Notes under the pieces: model-generated
What the model was told of the DNA's origin: nothing
What the model saw: only the letters and a program-made list of their open reading frames with translations
Database searches by the model: none
Translations under genes and position numbers: made by a program
In this document: positions 1-7,488 of the stretch, in pieces
How positions within the stretch are numbered: the first letter of the stretch is position 1
How the letters are laid out: each line of letters opens with the position of its first letter
DNA from: a virus
Lineage: Duplodnaviria > Heunggongvirae > Uroviricota > Caudoviricetes
IMG/VR virus record: IMGVR_UViG_2663763232_000018
Direction: 5' to 3' (one strand)
Length of the DNA stretch: 7,488 bases

Positions 1-981
1 TCACACCATCAGCCCGCCGCCAAGAGGGTTTAACGTTACTGCGTGTTGCAGGTAATCAGGTGCAAGGTGAGCATAAACCATCGTCTGTTGTATGCTGGCG
101 TGCCCCAGAATTTGCTGTAACGCAATAATGTTCCCCCCGTTCATCATGAACCAGCTTGCGAACGTATGTCTAAGCACATGCGTGGCCTGCCCGCGTGGTA
201 AGTCAGGCTTAACCAGCCTGAGCCGTTCGCAGAAGTTTTCATAGTCAACTTTGAACAGTGGCCCGGTGTCGCTGGTCTTGATCTCTTTCTCCAGTTCTTC
301 CGATATCGGCACCGTGCGCTTTTTCCCATTTTTGGTCTTAAGGAACGTCACACGCCCGTGATTAACCTGCTCACCTCGCAGCGTGCTCCCTTCACCCCAG
401 CGTGCGCCAGTGCTGAGGCATAGCAGTGCTACACGTCGATCGTCGCCGGTCAGAGTATCCAGCAATTTGCTGATCTCTGATTTGGCGAGATAAGTCATAG
501 CTGGCGGCGCTTCTTTCAGTGGTTCCAGACCCTTACAGGGGTTTTCCTTTCTGAACTCTTCCAGCTTTATCAACGTGCTGAACATCCCGGACAAACGGTA
601 AATATCCCGGTTGATCGTTGCTGCGCTGATACCGTCTTCCAGCCGTTGGCTTCGGTGCTGTGCAATCATTCGCTTGTTCAGTCGGTTAACGGCTGGATCA
701 CCAAGCGCCCTGATTGTTTTATTCAGGTGCCGCTTTTCAATCTCGCCATTTTCCTGAGTCTGTCCATATAGCAGCCACCAGGTATCTAACAACTCGCTTA
801 AGGTGCGGCGGTCAACGCTCGCGCCCAGCCATTCTTTTTTGTCGGCGTTGGCTAATACATAACGCTCAAAAAGAACTGCCTCTTGTTTCTTCTCAAATCG
901 CCTGCGGATACGTTTTCCGTTACGTCCGCGCGGCCATACGTCCACTTCATATTGACCACCTTCGAGCTTCTTAATCGACAT
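1..981 (-). CDS. int: P2-family tyrosine integrase, 326 aa, complete (stop codon at window positions 1-3)
   Basis: ORF 1..981(-). Tyrosine-recombinase signature residues are visible in the translation: box-I Arg in TGARWGE, His-x-x-Arg in HVLRHT, and the C-terminal Tyr in MVYAHL. SD GGAGGG lies 7 nt upstream of the ATG at 979-981. Position next to a C-type repressor and divergent from cox matches the P2 layout. Confidence 0.9.
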   Translation of the reverse strand: MSIKKLEGGQYEVDVWPRGRNGKRIRRRFEKKQEAVLFERYVLANADKKEWLGASVDRRTLSELLDTWWLLYGQTQENGEIEKRHLNKTIRALGDPAVNRLNKRMIAQHRSQRLEDGISAATINRDIYRLSGMFSTLIKLEEFRKENPCKGLEPLKEAPPAMTYLAKSEISKLLDTLTGDDRRVALLCLSTGARWGEGSTLRGEQVNHGRVTFLKTKNGKKRTVPISEELEKEIKTSDTGPLFKVDYENFCERLRLVKPDLPRGQATHVLRHTFASWFMMNGGNIIALQQILGHASIQQTMVYAHLAPDYLQHAVTLNPLGGGLMV

Positions 982-1050: not shown

Positions 1051-1371
1051 TTAACCAGTTTGTTTCTCGGAGCGGTCTGATCCAGTTGACTCTGGCCCAA
1101 TGTGTGCGAGGGCCGGTGCGATTTGACCAGCTTGAGGGGCGGTCTTATCAGTCATAAGCCAGAGCGTGTATTTTGCGAAACGTGAATGCTGAGTGATCTT
1201 AAGCAAGATATCGCTACCAATACTCTCCACTCTTCCTGTCTCGTAATACTTCTGCGTGCCAGCAGGTATTCCAGTTAATTCAAAGAATTGCTGCCTTGTT
1301 AACCCCTCCGCATCCCTGATAGCTCTGATTTTTTCACCCACGCCGCTTGACGGGGTAGGGATCTCTACCAT
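1051..1371 (-). CDS. C: Immunity repressor, P2 C-type (HTH, about 106 aa from ATG at 1371; alternative in-frame ATG at 1404 gives 117 aa)
   Basis: Translation has an XRE-like helix-turn-helix (LTRQQFFELTGIPAGTQKYYETG) and a C-terminal segment (KYTLWLMT...GQIAPALAH) that matches my recollection of P2 C. The ATG at 1369-1371 has a near-consensus SD AAGGAG 6 nt upstream on the minus strand. Stop TAA at 1051-1053. The track ORF 1051..1410 begins with a TTG. Confidence 0.75.
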   Translation of the reverse strand: MVEIPTPSSGVGEKIRAIRDAEGLTRQQFFELTGIPAGTQKYYETGRVESIGSDILLKITQHSRFAKYTLWLMTDKTAPQAGQIAPALAHIGPESTGSDRSEKQTG

Positions 1372-1376
1372 AACAT
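1347..1376 (+). promoter_or_regulatory. Candidate rightward early promoter (Pe-like): -35 TTGACG at 1347-1352, -10-like ATAACA/TAACAT at 1370-1376
   Basis: Hexamers read by eye with a 17-18 bp spacer. The -10 is weak and the assignment is tentative. The element would overlap the 5' end of the repressor gene, consistent with the face-to-face promoter arrangement known for P2 and 186 switches. Confidence 0.25.
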
Positions 1377-1404
1377 TCTCCTTAAGGGTGGTAATCTCTA
1401 CCAT
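1361..1404. promoter_or_regulatory. Two perfect 11-bp direct repeats ATCTCTACCAT (1361-1371 and 1394-1404), 33 bp start-to-start; candidate repressor operator half-sites
   Basis: The repeats are seen directly in the sequence. They lie in the divergent int-C / cox switch region and flank a candidate -10 for the rightward early promoter, as P2 C operators (direct repeats flanking the Pe -10) do. Each repeat ends in CCAT, giving an in-frame ATG for the repressor on the minus strand. Confidence 0.4.
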
Positions 1405-1471
1405 GAGCAACCGCCAATATAAGCAGTTACAAGCCGAAATAAGCGCCTAGCGCCGATGGGGATTATGACAC

Positions 1472-1753
1472 ATGACAGAGAAAGAGTTAGAGGGGTTCAT
1501 TGAAGTGCGTCACGCCGTTGACGCGGTTCCATACCCTAAATTTGCCGAGTTAATCGGTAAGAAGCCCGCCACGGTTAAGAGCATGATTGAAGACGGTAAG
1601 TTGCCGATCATCCCGTGGAAGAACCCGGAAAGCCTGGGCGCCCGCGCTGAGAACTGGATCTATATTCCTGAGTTCAACCGCGCAATGCGTGACGCCTATT
1701 ACAACCGTCCGAGAGAACAGCGCGACGCGTGGTTGTTGTGGATCGGTCTTTGA
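1472..1753 (+). CDS. cox: Cox-like excisionase / early transcriptional regulator, 93 aa
   Basis: ORF 1472..1753(+), first gene transcribed divergently from the repressor. Size matches P2 Cox (91 aa), and the C-terminal WLLWIGL and the YPKFAELIGK segment match my recollection of P2 Cox. Confidence 0.75.
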   Translation: MTEKELEGFIEVRHAVDAVPYPKFAELIGKKPATVKSMIEDGKLPIIPWKNPESLGARAENWIYIPEFNRAMRDAYYNRPREQRDAWLLWIGL

Positions 1754-2218: not shown

Positions 2219-2422
2219 ATGAGCCAGTTAGTGCAATTAAGCCGCCACTCTTATTTATATCGTGGCTTCACGATTCAAAAGTGCCCGCGTAATCCATTTA
2301 CGTTTAAGCACTCTTATCGTATTTCCAGCAATGGCGATTATTACGGGCGTGACTTTGCTTTAGCGGAAGCCATGCGCACGGTTGATCAGATGTATAAGCA
2401 AGGGGGCAGTAATGCACGATGA
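2219..2422 (+). CDS. Hypothetical small protein, 67 aa (MSQLVQLSRHSYLYRGF...)
   Basis: ATG at 2219 follows SD AGGAAG. The upstream stop and this start overlap as TGATATG. The track ORF start at 2183 is a TTG. Confidence 0.6.
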   Translation: MSQLVQLSRHSYLYRGFTIQKCPRNPFTFKHSYRISSNGDYYGRDFALAEAMRTVDQMYKQGGSNAR

Positions 2423-2642
2423 AGGCCCATCACTGGCAAGCCTGCTTAAGCACGGGTGCCAGGTCACGCACTTCAAGAACTCACGCGGCTGGCTGGAAAC
2501 GCCGGACGGAAGATTTTTTAAACCCGAACCGGCGAAGGTTCAATTTATCAAAGGTAAAAATAAACCGTTTATTTATACCCAAAGAATAAATAAAGGCTTC
2601 CTGCTTACACTGGCTGAATTATTTAAAAAGCTAATTAAGTAA
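2412..2642 (+). CDS. Hypothetical small protein, 76 aa, basic and Lys-rich (MHDEGPSLASLLKHG...)
   Basis: ATG at 2412 is preceded by SD AAGGGGG (2398-2404). It overlaps the upstream gene by 11 nt (ATGCACGATGA). Coding sequence becomes AT-rich from about 2500. Confidence 0.55.
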   Translation: MHDEGPSLASLLKHGCQVTHFKNSRGWLETPDGRFFKPEPAKVQFIKGKNKPFIYTQRINKGFLLTLAELFKKLIK

Positions 2643-2729
2643 TTCGGTTTTAAAAAAATCAACTATGTTTTCTCCGCCTTTTTATTAAGTGGCGGCGGTT
2701 CAACTCATTCTTTTTTTGAGGAAGAGATT

Positions 2730-2942
2730 ATGACCAGACGTGATCAATATAGCTTCATTTTGCATGTTCTTTTACCTGCTATCGAAAATGAAGGCTTAAC
2801 CATTAAAACCCGCCGTGATGGTGAGTTAACCCTTTCTGCCACTGGATCAGTAACCACTAATTTTATCAGCAACCTGCGCCAGCACTGCATTGAAGAATTG
2901 CAGCGCCCTTCCATTCCTTCTTCTCCTTACGGTTATTTATAA
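2730..2942 (+). CDS. Hypothetical small protein, 70 aa (MTRRDQYSFILHVLL...)
   Basis: ATG at 2730 is preceded by SD GAGGAAGAG. It sits in the AT-rich segment after an 87-bp AT-rich intergenic gap. Confidence 0.55.
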   Translation: MTRRDQYSFILHVLLPAIENEGLTIKTRRDGELTLSATGSVTTNFISNLRQHCIEELQRPSIPSSPYGYL

Positions 2943-2957
2943 ATAGAGGTCTTTTAC

Positions 2958-3206
2958 ATGAGTAACGTAGCGAAACTTCAATTAGGTTTTTCACCGCTGA
3001 CTAAAAAAATCCAGTTGGCAAAGATGCGCGATGATGGGGAAGGGCGCCGCCTTCGCGTTGGTAGTGATCCTGGTCGTGATGTGACTAACGAAGCTGCGCA
3101 ATTAGTTTGGCAGTTGGTTATGTCTGAGGGAGGGGAAATCGGCTGGAACCTGTCGGACGGTAGCCGCATGGTTTTGAAAGCTGAGAAAGTGGGGCACGCA
3201 TCATGA
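2958..3206 (+). CDS. Hypothetical small protein, 82 aa (MSNVAKLQLGFSPLTKK...)
   Basis: ATG at 2958 follows SD-like AGAGG. Its stop overlaps the dam start as ATGA (3203-3206). Confidence 0.6.
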   Translation: MSNVAKLQLGFSPLTKKIQLAKMRDDGEGRRLRVGSDPGRDVTNEAAQLVWQLVMSEGGEIGWNLSDGSRMVLKAEKVGHAS

Positions 3207-4186
3207 GCAGCCCTATTATTCGCCCGTTCATCAAATGGGCAGGGGGTAAAACCCGTGTCCTTCCTGACCTGCTGCCGCACCTTCCTAAAGCCGACTGCCT
3301 GATCGAACCGTTCGTAGGCGGCGCATCGGTATTTCTGGCGACTGAGTACCGCCGCTATGTGCTGGCTGATATCAACCCGGATCTTATTAACCTTTATCGG
3401 GAAGTCACCCGTTACCCGGACTTAGTGATCGATGCGGCCCGCGAACTGTTCAACAGCAAGAACAGCCCGCAGGGGTACAACGAAGTCCGCGCCGCGTTCA
3501 ATAAGCAGGTATGTACGGTAAAAAGCGGTGGGTTGCGTTATGGCGTCGAAATGGCGCGCATCATGCGTGCTGCTCAATTCCTGTATCTGAACCGCCACGG
3601 TTATAACGGCTTATGCCGTTACAGCCGTAAGACCGGCTTTAACGTGCCGTTTGGCAAGTATAAGAGCGTCTACTTTCCTGAAAATGAAATCCGCCTGTTT
3701 GCCGAAAAGGCCAACGATACAAAGGCAATATTTCTTTGCGCGCCGTTCCAGCGTTCTCTACAGGTCGTCACGGGTGGCGATGTTCTCGTTTACTGCGATC
3801 CGCCTTACCTGCCTGAAAGCAAAACAGCCGATTTTACCCAATACCACACCGAACCATTCACGGAAGACAACCACCGCCAGTTAGTCCAGGCACTGCTGGA
3901 AGTTAACCGTAAGCATGGCGTGAAGGTTGTCATTTCCAACAGCGACACCGAAGCCACCCGCGCGATTTATCAGCCTTTCAAGATGCACGAAATCAGCGTG
4001 CAACGTTCCGTCAGCACTGACAAAGACAACCGCCAGAAGGCCAAAGAAGTGATCGGCGTGCTGCCTGTCTGCGACTGCTGCGGGCGTTACGGCGGCGGTT
4101 GCCCTGATTGTGGCGCCGTGATGGGTGATGCGACTTACAACGCGATGGTTGCGGCAGGCACGTTTGACGATCTGGAGGCGTTTTAA
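3203..4186 (+). CDS. dam: Dam-family N6-adenine DNA methyltransferase, 327 aa, orphan (no adjacent restriction enzyme), with Cys-rich C-terminal extension
   Basis: N-terminal KWAGGK (residues 11-16), SAM-binding-like EPFVGGASVF, and catalytic DPPY (codons 3797-3808) are seen in the translation and are hallmark motifs of Dam-type MTases. A Cys cluster CDCCGRYGGGCPDC (codons 4070-4111) lies in a C-terminal tail beyond the length of E. coli Dam. Confidence 0.85.
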   Translation: MSSPIIRPFIKWAGGKTRVLPDLLPHLPKADCLIEPFVGGASVFLATEYRRYVLADINPDLINLYREVTRYPDLVIDAARELFNSKNSPQGYNEVRAAFNKQVCTVKSGGLRYGVEMARIMRAAQFLYLNRHGYNGLCRYSRKTGFNVPFGKYKSVYFPENEIRLFAEKANDTKAIFLCAPFQRSLQVVTGGDVLVYCDPPYLPESKTADFTQYHTEPFTEDNHRQLVQALLEVNRKHGVKVVISNSDTEATRAIYQPFKMHEISVQRSVSTDKDNRQKAKEVIGVLPVCDCCGRYGGGCPDCGAVMGDATYNAMVAAGTFDDLEAF

Positions 4187-4365
4187 TGAATCTTGTAGAC
4201 GCCTGGATCGTTGAAATCATAAGCGTGAGTCGTGGCGAGATTGTGCCGTATTGGTTGGTTGAGGCGAAAGTAACAGCTTATGGAAGGGAGTCAATAACCA
4301 CAATTCTGAAGAAATCAGAAGAGGAAGCCAAAGCCGTTAAAGTAGGGGATGTAGTTCAAATATGA
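4186..4365 (+). CDS. Hypothetical small protein, 59 aa (MNLVDAWIVEIISVSRGEIVPYWLVEAKVTAYGRESITTILKKSEEEAKAVKVGDVVQI); not present in the supplied ORF track
   Basis: Hand-translated ORF exactly filling the dam-A gap. Its ATG overlaps the dam stop (TAATG at 4184-4188) and its stop overlaps the A start (ATGA at 4362-4365). It was probably omitted from the track for length. Confidence 0.5.
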   Translation: MNLVDAWIVEIISVSRGEIVPYWLVEAKVTAYGRESITTILKKSEEEAKAVKVGDVVQI

Positions 4366-6719
4366 CCACGGCAACCAGTGGCCGTCGCGCCCCTTCTCCA
4401 CCTCCACCGTATCCGGGCAGCACTGACAATGCTATCCCTTACGCTTATGGCGGGAACAAACCATACCAGCCGATTGGCGTTGATGTAGCGCCGGGGCTGG
4501 ATGGTTTCGACTATCTCACGCCGGACGGCACGCGTAAGCATATTGCGTTCAGTGAACTGGTAGCGGAGGACGAAAAGCCGGAACGCAGTAAGCTGCTGCG
4601 TCGCCGTCTGGCTTCTCTTCCGCAATATGTCCGCCGCCACTTTGCAGCGAAGCTTGATGCGCTGGATGTGAAAGACCGCAAAGCGGCAGATCACTGGCTG
4701 CTTAACACCTTTGAGCGCCACGTATTAACGCGTATTGATAGCGTGAACAGTGTTTACCAGCCTGATACTGTGATGCCCGGCATTCTGCTGCCAATTCGCG
4801 ATCAGCTTTTCCGTATGCTCTGGGCAGGGAAAAAAGAGTTAAAAAGACTGGCTTATACGCTTGCCGATATCTTTACGAGCGAGTTTATACGCGAGTCCGA
4901 TCACCAGTTGGTGCGCACCGGCGATCCTGAGTTCGCGGCGCTTTCTGGCTATGGCCGTATTGCATCGCTGGCAGTGCATCTGAAAACGCCGATCCCCGGT
5001 TGGACAGCTTATTGCAATGAAGAACTTGAAGCGGAGGACGCGTTACGCGCAGTTCTCCGTCTTGAGTCACCGCAGTGGTGGTTAAACCGCCTGCGCCGTA
5101 TCCATGCCCGGTGGCGTGAGCATTTGATGATCGCAGCGGGATACGTCCAGAAAAAATCCTCCCCATACAGTAGCGCCCCGTGCCTTACGGAATGGCTGGC
5201 CCAGAAAAAAGCTAACCGTGAATACCTCAAGGCTATGGAACTGGAAGACCAGGACACGGGCGAGCGCATTTCGCTGATCGATAAAGTCGCCGGCAGTGTT
5301 GCCAATCCGGCCAACCGTCGCCGCGAACTCATGACGAGAATGCGCGGATTTGAAGATCTGGCGAAGCTGGAAGGGCTGGCCGGTGACTTCTACACGCTGA
5401 CAGCGCCTTCCCGCTATCACGCTATGCAGCATAACGGGCGCCGTAATAACAAATACTGTGGCGCGTCGCCGCGTGAGACACAGCAATATCTTTGCAAAGT
5501 CTGGGCGAGAACCCGCGCCGCATGGAAGAGAAAAGGGATCCGCGTCTTTGGTTTCCGCGTGGTCGAACCGCACCACGATGCAACGCCACACTGGCATTTG
5601 CTTCTTTTTATGCGCCCGGAATGCGTCGAGCAGGCGCGCGAAATCTTCCGTAAATATGCCCTGAAAGAAGACGGCAACGAACCGGGAGCGCAGGAAAACC
5701 GCTTTCAGGTCGTGCCGATCGACGATGCCCACGGCAGCGCAACTGGCTACATAGCGAAATACATTTCGAAGAATATCGACGGCTTCGCGCTGGATGGTGA
5801 GAAGGACGACGAAACCGGGGAAGACCTGAAAGAAATGTCACTCCGCGTTAGCGCGTGGGCATCGCGCTGGGCTATTCGTCAGTTTCAGCAGATCGGCGGT
5901 GCGCCGGTCACGGTATATCGCGAACTTCGCCGCTTGGGCGATCGCGAACTGGTGTTACACCCTGAACTGGAAACCGCCCGGCAGGCCGCTAACGGTGGCG
6001 AATGGGATAACTACGTATTAGCCCAGGGTGGCCCGTTGGTTGAGCGCGATAAGCTGCGCATCCGTCTGAATTATGAAACCACTGAAAACGGCAACGCCTA
6101 CGGCGATAACGTCCAGCGAATCACTGGTATTTACTGCCCGATTACGGGCAATGACTCTTTGATCTTCACCCGCACCACTCAATACAAAATCGTGCCGAAG
6201 CGCCAGAGCGCTGACGGTGTGGCCGTTGACGTTGGTTTTTCAGGCGGCAACGCCGCCCCTCGGAGTTCTGTCAATAACTGTACGCGGGATCCCGCGGCAG
6301 GTGCTGACGGTGTTGAACATGCCGATCACGAAGTGGGCGAGACGGTGAATTTTGATGCGCTTTCACGGCAGGAAAAGCGAGAACTGGCACAGAGGCTAAG
6401 TGACGATGTGCGAAGTAAGCGGAAAAAACGGCCACCGGAACGGGAAGACGGGGCCGGGATATCCGTGAAAGAGCAGCAGATCAGTGAACTGCTGGCGCTG
6501 CGTGGGATTGATGCCAGCGCCGGAATGGTCAGATCGATGATGGCCGGTGCGTCAGTGGCGTGCGGCGATCTTGTTATGACAGTGCAGGATGGGCGGCTGG
6601 TATCGCGCAACCGCGCCGCGTCGGGGCTGGATAAGCTGCCGTCGCAGGTGATGGCGGCGAAGCAACAGACAAATAGTCTTATTAACCGAATGAAAAAAGC
6701 CTTTAACGGTGCGTCATAA
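4362..6719 (+). CDS. A: Rolling-circle replication initiation protein gpA (HUH endonuclease superfamily), 785 aa
   Basis: HUH motif in PHWHLLLF (codons 5589-5597); paired catalytic tyrosines in GYIAKYISKNIDG (Tyr codons 5748-5750 and 5760-5762). Other blocks (TLTAPSRYH, VVEPHHDATPHWH, AWASRWAIRQF, RTTQYKIVPK, AAPRSSVNNC) match my recollection of P2 gpA. Confidence 0.9.
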   Translation: MTTATSGRRAPSPPPPYPGSTDNAIPYAYGGNKPYQPIGVDVAPGLDGFDYLTPDGTRKHIAFSELVAEDEKPERSKLLRRRLASLPQYVRRHFAAKLDALDVKDRKAADHWLLNTFERHVLTRIDSVNSVYQPDTVMPGILLPIRDQLFRMLWAGKKELKRLAYTLADIFTSEFIRESDHQLVRTGDPEFAALSGYGRIASLAVHLKTPIPGWTAYCNEELEAEDALRAVLRLESPQWWLNRLRRIHARWREHLMIAAGYVQKKSSPYSSAPCLTEWLAQKKANREYLKAMELEDQDTGERISLIDKVAGSVANPANRRRELMTRMRGFEDLAKLEGLAGDFYTLTAPSRYHAMQHNGRRNNKYCGASPRETQQYLCKVWARTRAAWKRKGIRVFGFRVVEPHHDATPHWHLLLFMRPECVEQAREIFRKYALKEDGNEPGAQENRFQVVPIDDAHGSATGYIAKYISKNIDGFALDGEKDDETGEDLKEMSLRVSAWASRWAIRQFQQIGGAPVTVYRELRRLGDRELVLHPELETARQAANGGEWDNYVLAQGGPLVERDKLRIRLNYETTENGNAYGDNVQRITGIYCPITGNDSLIFTRTTQYKIVPKRQSADGVAVDVGFSGGNAAPRSSVNNCTRDPAAGADGVEHADHEVGETVNFDALSRQEKRELAQRLSDDVRSKRKKRPPEREDGAGISVKEQQISELLALRGIDASAGMVRSMMAGASVACGDLVMTVQDGRLVSRNRAASGLDKLPSQVMAAKQQTNSLINRMKKAFNGAS
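6258..6274 (+). other. Candidate origin-of-replication nick region inside gene A (CCTCGGAGTTCTGTCAA)
   Basis: In P2 the ori lies within the A coding region. This stretch encodes the conserved AAPRSSVNNC block and closely resembles the P2 ori nick-site sequence as I remember it (one mismatch). That memory was not verified, so the call is tentative. Confidence 0.35.
6283..6296. repeat. Perfect 14-bp palindrome CGCGGGATCCCGCG with a central GATC, inside gene A
   Basis: Self-complementarity verified base by base. It lies 9 bp downstream of the candidate ori nick sequence. Confidence 0.85.
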
Positions 6720-6771
6720 CAGCGTGCCGGGGCTTCGCTTATTCATTTTCAGAAGAAACAGGAGTGACAGC

Positions 6772-7488
6772 ATGAGCAAAATTACCAGAGAACGCGCAGC
6801 AAAAATTGCAGCAGGCGGCGGATATAACTTTGATGAGGTGGAGGAGCTGGCGCGTATCGCGCTGGCATCGCTCGAAGCGGAGGAGTCAGGGCGAAATCCC
6901 GTGCTGGCCTATGCAGACAGTTACCGCGATATGGCTAAGCAGGGTGTTGAATCTATTCCTGTATGGAGCGTAATTACCGATCTGGAAAGAAATATCGCCC
7001 CGCTATACTCCGCCCCGCCAGCGCCGGTAGTTCCGGCAGAGCTTCATCCTGATACGCTGAAACTGGTGACCGACTTCAGCTCCGCCCTGGCTGAGAAGTT
7101 GTACAAGGCTCAATTAAAATATGGCTATGACGCGGACTGGAAACAAGATGGTTGGCCAAGCCAATGCCAGGCAGACTTTCAACAGCATATAGCTAAGGGA
7201 GACCCCCGGGATGTTGCCGCTTACTGTGCATTTATGTGGTATCACGGCTGGAAAACTGAGCCAGCGCCGGTATCGCTGCCTGACGAGCAACATAGCGAAC
7301 GCTTCAACTGGACACTTGGGCAGTGGGCTGAACATGTTGGGGGTCATTACCAGGGAAATGATCCGGCAAACTATTACGAGTTCGGCTCATTCATGGCGGT
7401 CGCTGCAATGCTGTGCCAATTCGGCACCGTTCAGCAAAAAATTGGATGGAACGCCTGCCGCGCCGCCATGGTTAACGCAGGCCAGTGA
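6772..7488 (+). CDS. Hypothetical two-domain protein, 238 aa, unknown function
   Basis: ATG at 6772 has a strong SD AGGAG (6760-6764) 7 nt upstream. The track start at 6709 is a GTG overlapping the end of A. The translation shows an acidic N-terminal region and a Trp/aromatic-rich C-terminal region (KYGYDADWKQDGW, AAYCAFMWYHGW) separated by a Pro/Ala linker (APPAPVVPAELHP). Stop TGA at 7486-7488. Confidence 0.7.
   Translation: MSKITRERAAKIAAGGGYNFDEVEELARIALASLEAEESGRNPVLAYADSYRDMAKQGVESIPVWSVITDLERNIAPLYSAPPAPVVPAELHPDTLKLVTDFSSALAEKLYKAQLKYGYDADWKQDGWPSQCQADFQQHIAKGDPRDVAAYCAFMWYHGWKTEPAPVSLPDEQHSERFNWTLGQWAEHVGGHYQGNDPANYYEFGSFMAVAAMLCQFGTVQQKIGWNACRAAMVNAGQ

Follow-up and report, generated by a model that had tools for sequence, protein, structure and literature searches.

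A P2-type lysogeny switch with two repeated candidate operators and a predicted new immunity specificity

Genes of the Early Region and Their Relatives

The window, by which we mean the whole stretch of 7,488 nt analyzed here (IMG/VR record IMGVR_UViG_2663763232_000018), is, judged from its genes and their homologies, the early region of a P2-family (Peduoviridae) prophage with a C/Pe/Pc/cox lysogeny switch (Table 1). The repressor gene C comes first and int second in a leftward operon, which is opposed by the rightward cox operon, the same int-C/cox gene order as in P2 and WPhi. Small ORFs lie between cox and dam, the one next to cox encoding a 67-aa hypothetical protein. Residues 8-106 of the repressor align end to end with residues 2-99 of P2 C (E = 6e-26; PDB 2XCJ/2L49), its sole match among solved structures, and the protein is 49% identical to P2 C over the full length and 60% identical to WPhi C. 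It falls into PHROG 147 (3e-37), and Pfam gives just a weak match to HTH_31. The cox product would serve, as in the P2 family, as Pc repressor and excisionase. A first-pass annotation of this DNA had called a P2-type lysogeny switch with a C-type repressor divergent from cox. This call holds, as the divergent gene encodes a Phage_Cox protein, the repressor is a full-length homologue of P2 C, C-int faces cox and two sites overlap the predicted Pe. A 186-type CI switch was rejected. CI of that type has about 190 aa and a C-terminal oligomerisation domain, and cII follows apl, whereas the repressor of the window is a 106-aa homologue of P2 C from end to end and the ORF after cox is the 67-aa hypothetical one.

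Enterobacter phage phiT5282H, the closest phage, is 97% identical over 78% of the window, with an identical switch region, and window positions ~2420-3200 and 6709-7488 lie outside this match. At the right end, an ORF that runs off the window contains 40 nt (6844-6883) identical to EaA genes of lambdoid phages. Salmonella phages SEN4 and SEN5 are about 95% identical to the window, with one substitution in copy 1 of the repeat described below. Between the Pc region and cox, both have about 815 bp of inserted DNA containing three small ORFs (2976-3771 of the SEN5 locus, L002), which is absent from the window and phiT5282H. At an identity of at least 95%, the switch was found in 19 of 5,426 complete E. 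coli genomes (about 0.35%), for example in strain KMi029, where the prophage adjoins cpxP. The replication origin of P2 lies within gene A. Short exact direct repeats occur within the gpA gene of the window (5147-5210, 5781-5870 and 5917-5950), including a pair of CCAGAAAAAA spaced by 54 bp and a pair of ATCGCGAACT spaced by 24 bp.

Table 1. Positions of genes and of predicted or candidate sites in the window.
Feature	Position	Strand	Basis or remark
Integrase, second gene of the leftward lysogenic operon	1-981	-	Pfam Int_N, Phage_integrase
C-type immunity repressor, 106 aa, ATG 1371-1369	1051-1371	-	P2 C homologue
Pe -35 TTGACG (predicted)	1347-1352	+	promoter scan and conserved offset
Operator O1 GGTAGGGATCTCTACC (predicted)	1354-1369		16-bp imperfect palindrome, 7/8 pairs; fills the -35/-10 spacer
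Copy 1 of ATCTCTACCAT	1361-1371	+	spans O1 centre and right arm, AT of the start codon and the first -10 base
Pe -10 TAACAT (predicted)	1371-1376	+	promoter scan
Shine-Dalgarno AAGGAG of the repressor gene	1378-1383	-	6 nt upstream of ATG-1371
Operator O2 GGTGGTAATCTCTACC (predicted)	1387-1402		5/8 palindromic pairs; about +4 to +19 of Pe
Copy 2 of ATCTCTACCAT	1394-1404	+	CAT at 1402-1404 provides the upstream in-frame start (ATG) of a hypothetical 117-aa form
Candidate Cox-binding array over the presumed Pc	1409-1449	+	AYAAGC boxes, 10-bp phase
Candidate Pc -10 TATATT	1421->1416	-	lenient scan, poor -35
Alternative Pc candidate TGtCATAAT	1470->1462	-	lenient scan, poor -35
cox, 93 aa	1472-1753	+	Pfam PF10743 Phage_Cox, 2e-23; PHROG 272, 8e-39
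dam	3203-4186		
gpA replication initiator	4362-6719		

Direct Repeats at the Predicted Pe Promoter

Two copies of ATCTCTACCAT lie on the plus strand without a mismatch, 33 bp apart from start to start, copy 1 forming codons 1-4 of the repressor ORF and copy 2 lying in the intergenic spacer; the repeat, its spacing and its overlap with the 5' end of the repressor gene were thus as first described. The similarity of the copies reaches leftwards to 19 nt (GGGTAGGGATCTCTACCAT and GGGTGGTAATCTCTACCAT, 84% identical). Because the sequence between the copies is unrelated, the pair does not represent a duplicated 33-bp unit, and a tandem duplication of such a unit was ruled out; the 14 nt 3' of each copy are unrelated as well. 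An exact local direct repeat of at least 11 nt arose in 1 of 5,000 dinucleotide-preserving shuffles of 1340-1471, and the pair exceeds every other local direct repeat of the window in length. A genome-wide check, already called for in the first-pass annotation, placed the repeat, with up to one mismatch allowed, solely at the two switch positions of the complete phiT5282H genome (31,978 bp). A chance origin was ruled out by the shuffles and this uniqueness.

A promoter scan of 1000-1800 returned a sole promoter-like site, TTGACG-18-TAACAT (1347-1376). One such match per 800 bp is the chance expectation, and TAACAT is weaker than the family -10 consensus, so the assignment to Pe rests on positional conservation. 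Our family set comprised 113 loci that encode C homologues, including 108 with repressor relatives (45-100% identical) as well as P2, WPhi, L-413C and SI7. Of 91 distinct switch regions, 89 have TTGAC at one and the same offset from the C gene, including classes in which it is non-coding, and the position of TTGACG is that of the annotated P2 -35 and of the annotated WPhi promoter. The -10 offset has the consensus TAWATT in 44 class representatives. Transcription from Pe is predicted to start near 1383, with O2 just downstream. In the family set, the strongest local repeat usually fell at the O1/O2 position, with a class-specific sequence, and the scan for repeats, which had no prior knowledge of it, picked out the WPhi operator as published (ATTGGTGAC, d = 34). 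A clear repeat was present in 24 class representatives, 17 of which have a spacing of 32-34 bp. The earlier proposal of a rightward promoter whose -10 lies between the repeats is borne out by sites that lie at TTGACG-18-TAACAT in a layout like that of the mapped WPhi and P2 operators. We consider it likely that the copies of ATCTCTACCAT are the two C-repressor operators of Pe, which would act by promoter occlusion as in WPhi and P2.

In the mechanism that we propose, a dimer of the 106-aa C protein would bind each operator through helix 3 of its helix-turn-helix (HTH). Since 33 bp amounts to about three helical turns, the two dimers would sit roughly on the same face of the DNA. A contact between them is conjecture, because genetic assays revealed neither cooperative binding in vivo nor higher oligomers of P2 C or WPhi C (PMC1904263). 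C bound at O1 and O2 would exclude RNA polymerase from Pe and keep cox and the early operon silent; by removing convergent transcription, it would also favour the leftward Pc and hence the expression of C and int. Superinfecting phages with the same operators would be repressed likewise, which would constitute immunity. In the opposite state, Cox on the AYAAGC boxes would shut Pc. The transcription start sites of Pe and Pc, the position of Pc and heteroimmunity are likewise predictions from the sequence.

The architecture is a known one, and the operator sequence with its specificity class very likely represents a new immunity specificity. A distinct specificity had been suggested before on the ground that the 33-bp spacing differs from the 22 bp of P2. 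The suggestion survives as very likely and the ground does not: this spacing is not unusual, because the WPhi layout (34 bp; PMC1904268) and most related loci with a clear repeat share it. Specificity would follow the sequence of the sites and the residues of the recognition helix, not the spacing. The literature searched, which did not extend to the earlier class lists (I-X), gave no description of this operator sequence or class, and the switch is not treated in the genome paper of SEN4/5. The centre of O1 (1360-1363) reads GATC, and the phage has its own Dam methylase; GATC is not conserved at the operator centre, which reads AATC in O2 and GATT in O1 of SEN4/5.

Start Codon of the Repressor

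The first-pass annotation had pointed to two in-frame ATGs (1371 and 1404) and to a longer repressor beginning MVEITTLKENVMVEI, and both read as claimed, with no stop between the ATGs. The repeat could on this account provide two alternative starts, for isoforms of 106 and 117 aa, or be a remnant of a duplicated 5' end of the gene. The long form is annotated in the RefSeq record of SEN5, and a Pc transcript starting near 1409 would have ATG-1404 at its 5' end. However, the minus strand upstream of ATG-1404 has no Shine-Dalgarno sequence comparable to the strong AAGGAG before ATG-1371, and a Shine-Dalgarno-like sequence is kept at the equivalent of 1378-1383 in nearly all relatives of the clade. 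Among relatives, an upstream in-frame ATG is found mainly in those whose copy 2 ends in CCAT at a spacing of exactly 33 bp. Classes with spacings of 32 or 34 bp lack it or have it out of frame, and so does L009, whose helix 3 is the same and whose copy 2 has CCGT; the sole locus of another class with an in-frame upstream ATG, L061, also has 33 bp. The 11 extra residues have no counterpart in P2 C, which aligns from residue 8 of the short form, and this 106-aa form is the one called by NCBI PGAP and in the phiT5282H RefSeq record, the long form being called in that of SEN5 alone. As to a duplication, the unrelated sequence between the copies means that no 33-bp unit was duplicated. Two starts or a duplicated 5' end are thus a very improbable explanation of the repeat, and a functional longer repressor is unlikely. 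Since the Shine-Dalgarno sequence, the relatives, the P2 C alignment and the annotations favour the short form, the second ATG appears to be a by-product of the operator repeat.

With the 106-aa form as the repressor, the clade shows an oddity: its C ORF opens at the Pe -10, O1 and the -35 thereby encoding residues 1-9, of which the first six (codons 1-6, MVEIPT) are encoded by O1. The first six residues of C vary with the operator class (MVEIPT, MVSNET and MVTTAT).

Comparison with Known Switches

To our knowledge, operators have been mapped by experiment for just three P2-family repressors. In P2, P2 Hy dis and WPhi alike, C binds to a pair of repeated half-sites at Pe. These are 8 bp long and 22 bp apart (centre to centre) in P2, where they flank the -10, 8 bp long and 26 bp apart in P2 Hy dis, where they flank the -35, and 10 bp long and 34 bp apart in WPhi, again flanking the -10 (PMC1904268, PMC1904263, PMC2995052). 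The GenBank record of P2 gives the order -35, O1, -10, O2 and then Pc, and that of WPhi annotates both promoters.

WPhi, with its 60% identical repressor and shared int-C/cox gene order, resembles the window closely. When the two are anchored on TTGAC, O1, -10 and O2 fall within 1-2 nt of each other: O1 lies in the -35/-10 spacer, offsets 23-29 hold the -10, and O2 follows O1 at 33-34 bp. The WPhi O1 (TATTGGTGAC), part of the fragment that was examined by EMSA and CAT assays (PMC1904263), has the same position as O1 of the window, and so has O2, given spacings of 34 and 33 bp. In contrast, the WPhi operator TATTGGTGAC is unrelated to the window core ATCTCTACC, and the specificity residues of helix 3 differ between the window (AGTQKYYETGRV, AGTQKYYET) and WPhi (LGTVKNYESGHK, LGTVKNYES). 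The repressor of the window also has an N-terminal extension, its start codon lying at the Pe -10 and O1 being coding, whereas the WPhi start codon abuts the -35. From these comparisons, the window shares the architecture of WPhi (class III of Karlsson/Nilsson) but is outside that immunity class: it has the spacing of about three turns flanking the -10, and neither the operator TATTGGTGAC nor the WPhi recognition helix.

P2 C (PDB 2XCJ), at 49% identity, likewise has two sites flanking the Pe -10, with converging Pe and Pc and Cox as counter-repressor (PMC2995052, PMC3936717). Its O1/O2 (GTTTAGAT) differ in being 8-bp repeats, described as non-palindromic, that are 22 bp or two helical turns apart, compared with three turns in the window; P2 C requires both half-sites for binding (PMC1904263). 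P2 Hy dis C belongs to the same protein family and follows the same two-site logic (PMC1904268), but its sites flank the -35 and are 2.5 turns apart, whereas those of the window flank the -10 at about 3 turns. More distantly, C.Esp1396I and the 434 and P22 c2 repressors are structural relatives of the P2 C dimer (PMC2995052), with sequences unrelated to the window repressor at the level tested. C.Esp1396I places one dimer on each of two directly repeated palindromic sites, as we propose for the window, although its sites are 15 bp apart and not 33.

Taken by itself, the locus is a prophage switch of an ordinary and well-understood type in which the operator sequence is new. For annotation, this means that the 106-aa start is correct, that Pe and its operators can be placed, and that an immunity group can be assigned, which includes phiT5282H, SEN4/5 and prophages in the roughly 0.35% of complete E. 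coli genomes given above.

Operator Classes and Helix 3 of the Repressor

Across the family set, the half-operators fall into classes according to helix 3 of the repressor. The helix 3 of the window class, IPAGTQKYYETGRV (AGTQKYYET), found at 19 distinct loci with repressors 62-100% identical to that of the window, goes with GGTRG, and the 28 half-operators of this class have the consensus GGTaGagA. Repressors with ..QKHYEMGRR (84-86% identity to the window repressor) go with GGTMTC, those with ..ASTQKQYET.. (82-85%) with GGTGTC, and those with ..V(G/V)TQKFYET.. (57-74%) with GGTTRC. Because the half-operators follow the helix 3 classes, the operator tracks helix 3 and not overall relatedness. 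The residue of helix 3 that varies is Tyr42, equivalent to Tyr36 of P2 C. In P2 C, an alanine scan found Tyr36 essential for repression and operator binding, and the structure places this residue, which is poorly conserved in the family, for base-specific contacts (PMC2995052). In the code that we propose, residue 42 would set the arm of the operator, Y reading GGTRG, H GGTMTC, Q GGTGTC and F GGTTRC.

Symmetry of the Predicted Operators

The 11-bp direct repeat had first been taken as the functional unit, a role that probably belongs to a 16-bp imperfect palindrome instead. Each repeat forms part of such a palindrome, GGTRG-N6-CYACC, ATCTCTACCAT being the centre and right arm of the 16-mer plus two bases, and the consensus 16-mer GGTAGAGATCTCTACC is a perfect palindrome. 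The 7/8 complementary pairs of O1 (6/8 in a WPhi-type O1, L093) and the 5/8 of O2 compare with a mean of 3.4 in random 20-mers from the same loci, 0.4% of which reach 7. Dyad symmetry is enriched at both O1 and O2 among 45 class representatives (Mann-Whitney p about 5e-14 and 1e-10); because the classes are related by descent, these p-values overstate independence and the co-variation with helix 3 is not fully independent. Some operator classes are perfect palindromes of 16-20 bp, such as L106 (TGGAACCTATATAGGTTCCA). In three loci with a helix 3 identical to that of the window (L010, L067 and L068) and one with two substitutions (L011), the same 16-mer is flipped relative to Pe; the reverse complement of L067 O1 matches O2 of the window at 15 of 16 positions.

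An alternative is that C operators are non-palindromic half-sites in direct repeat, of which one helix per dimer reads 9-11 bp (ATCTCTACC) while the other contacts flanking DNA non-specifically, the GGT...ACC symmetry being incidental. Such a reading was put forward on the basis of the crystal structure of P2 C (PMC2995052). The perfect identity of O1 and O2 is confined to the right-hand 11 bp, that is, to the centre and right arm, with left arms that differ (GGTAG vs GGTGG), and agrees with the published view that the repeat is read by one helix, the other binding less specifically. Direct half-sites would also agree with the mere 5/8 palindromic pairs of O2 and with the head-to-tail arrangement of O1 and O2 in every phage of the clade. 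On the other hand, the left arm is kept as GGTRG in the 28 half-operators that go with one helix 3, and it shifts along with the right arm when helix 3 changes. The flipped sites of relatives with the same helix 3, the strong enrichment of dyad symmetry across classes and perfect palindromes like that of L106 also speak against incidental symmetry. We therefore regard non-palindromic half-sites as unlikely. That each 16-mer is read symmetrically by one C dimer has, in our judgment, an even chance of being right. Somewhat more tentatively, we suggest that the half-sites of this clade, and perhaps those of much of the P2 C family, may in fact be two complete dyad-symmetric 16-bp operators whose arms are set by one helix-3 residue. 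If true, this would provide a natural recognition code for new immunity classes, and would explain how a symmetric P2 C dimer reads direct repeats, a point left open by the crystal structure.

In several more distant C classes (L022, L072, L094, L098 and others), O1 and O2 matched better as inverted than as direct repeats, contrary to the statement that direct repeats are common to all classes. This family-wide comparison of direct and inverted matches is heuristic and carries little weight, some of the distant inverted matches being a different palindrome near O2.

Candidate Cox Boxes, Pc and Mosaicism

Downstream of O2, AYAAGC boxes are found at 1419 (ATAAGC), 1429 (ACAAGC) and 1439 (ATAAGC), together with weaker flanking boxes. 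The 15-mer ATAAGCAGTTACAAG (1419-1433) has exactly two copies in the phiT5282H genome, one at the switch and one about 45 nt beyond the int stop, where it adjoins TGTAGAC direct repeats (9340-9400 of L116; see also 10817-10860 of L116) that look like Int arm sites. Two copies were also present in nearly every locus that has the switch copy and enough sequence past int, the exception being SEN5 (L002) with the switch copy alone. P2 Cox binds both Pc and attP via phased boxes (PMC3936717). Because this distribution over switch and attP is the one expected for Cox, the AYAAGC boxes are probably Cox boxes for Pc repression and excision. For Pc itself, the strict promoter scan of 1000-1800 gave no minus-strand site, and a lenient one gave the two weak candidates in Table 1. 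In the P2 record the Pc -35 is ATGAAT, which matches the consensus at 3/6 positions, and the WPhi record gives a promoter range alone; since the two records differ in the distance from Pc to cox, analogy does not settle the position of Pc.

Phased direct repeats in the same intergenic region are bound by Cox-family proteins (PMC3936717), and O1 and O2 might accordingly be sites for Cox, Int or a host factor, or else fold into hairpins within the C mRNA leader, each 16-mer being able to give a 5-bp RNA stem. Most loci of the H, Q and F classes have a Cox protein at 97-99% identity (80% for the class-D locus L066), and most of these near-identical proteins face completely different O1/O2. Because Cox is near-constant while the sites change, O1/O2 follow C and not Cox, which was ruled out as their binder. 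Moreover, AYAAGC is found at both Pc and attP, whereas the O1/O2 motif occurs nowhere else in the genome, attP included. The minus-strand fold of 1340-1412 is no more stable than shuffles (z = -0.6), and there was no Rfam match at E up to 1, which ruled out RNA structure and a known RNA family. Overall, another binder or a hairpin is extremely improbable, and C remains the likely ligand of O1 and O2.

Compared with window 1347-1753, loci L055, L054, L064 and L065 are 97-99% identical in Cox and the Pc/Cox-box block and differ in helix 3 of C and in O1/O2. By this comparison, there is a recombination boundary (mosaic joint) between O2 and the Cox boxes, and immunity specificity would therefore be exchanged or diversified as a C-plus-operator cassette. 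Relatives that share Cox and the promoter layout and differ at one or a few helix-3 residues form a natural series for tests of DNA recognition, which equally suits the study of how new immunity specificities arise. A 44-kb contig, IMGVR_UViG_3300045988_117626 (L034 and L082), encodes two C-type repressors with different operator classes, one 100% and the other 62% identical to the repressor of the window; it could be a case of tandem heteroimmune prophages or a chimeric assembly.
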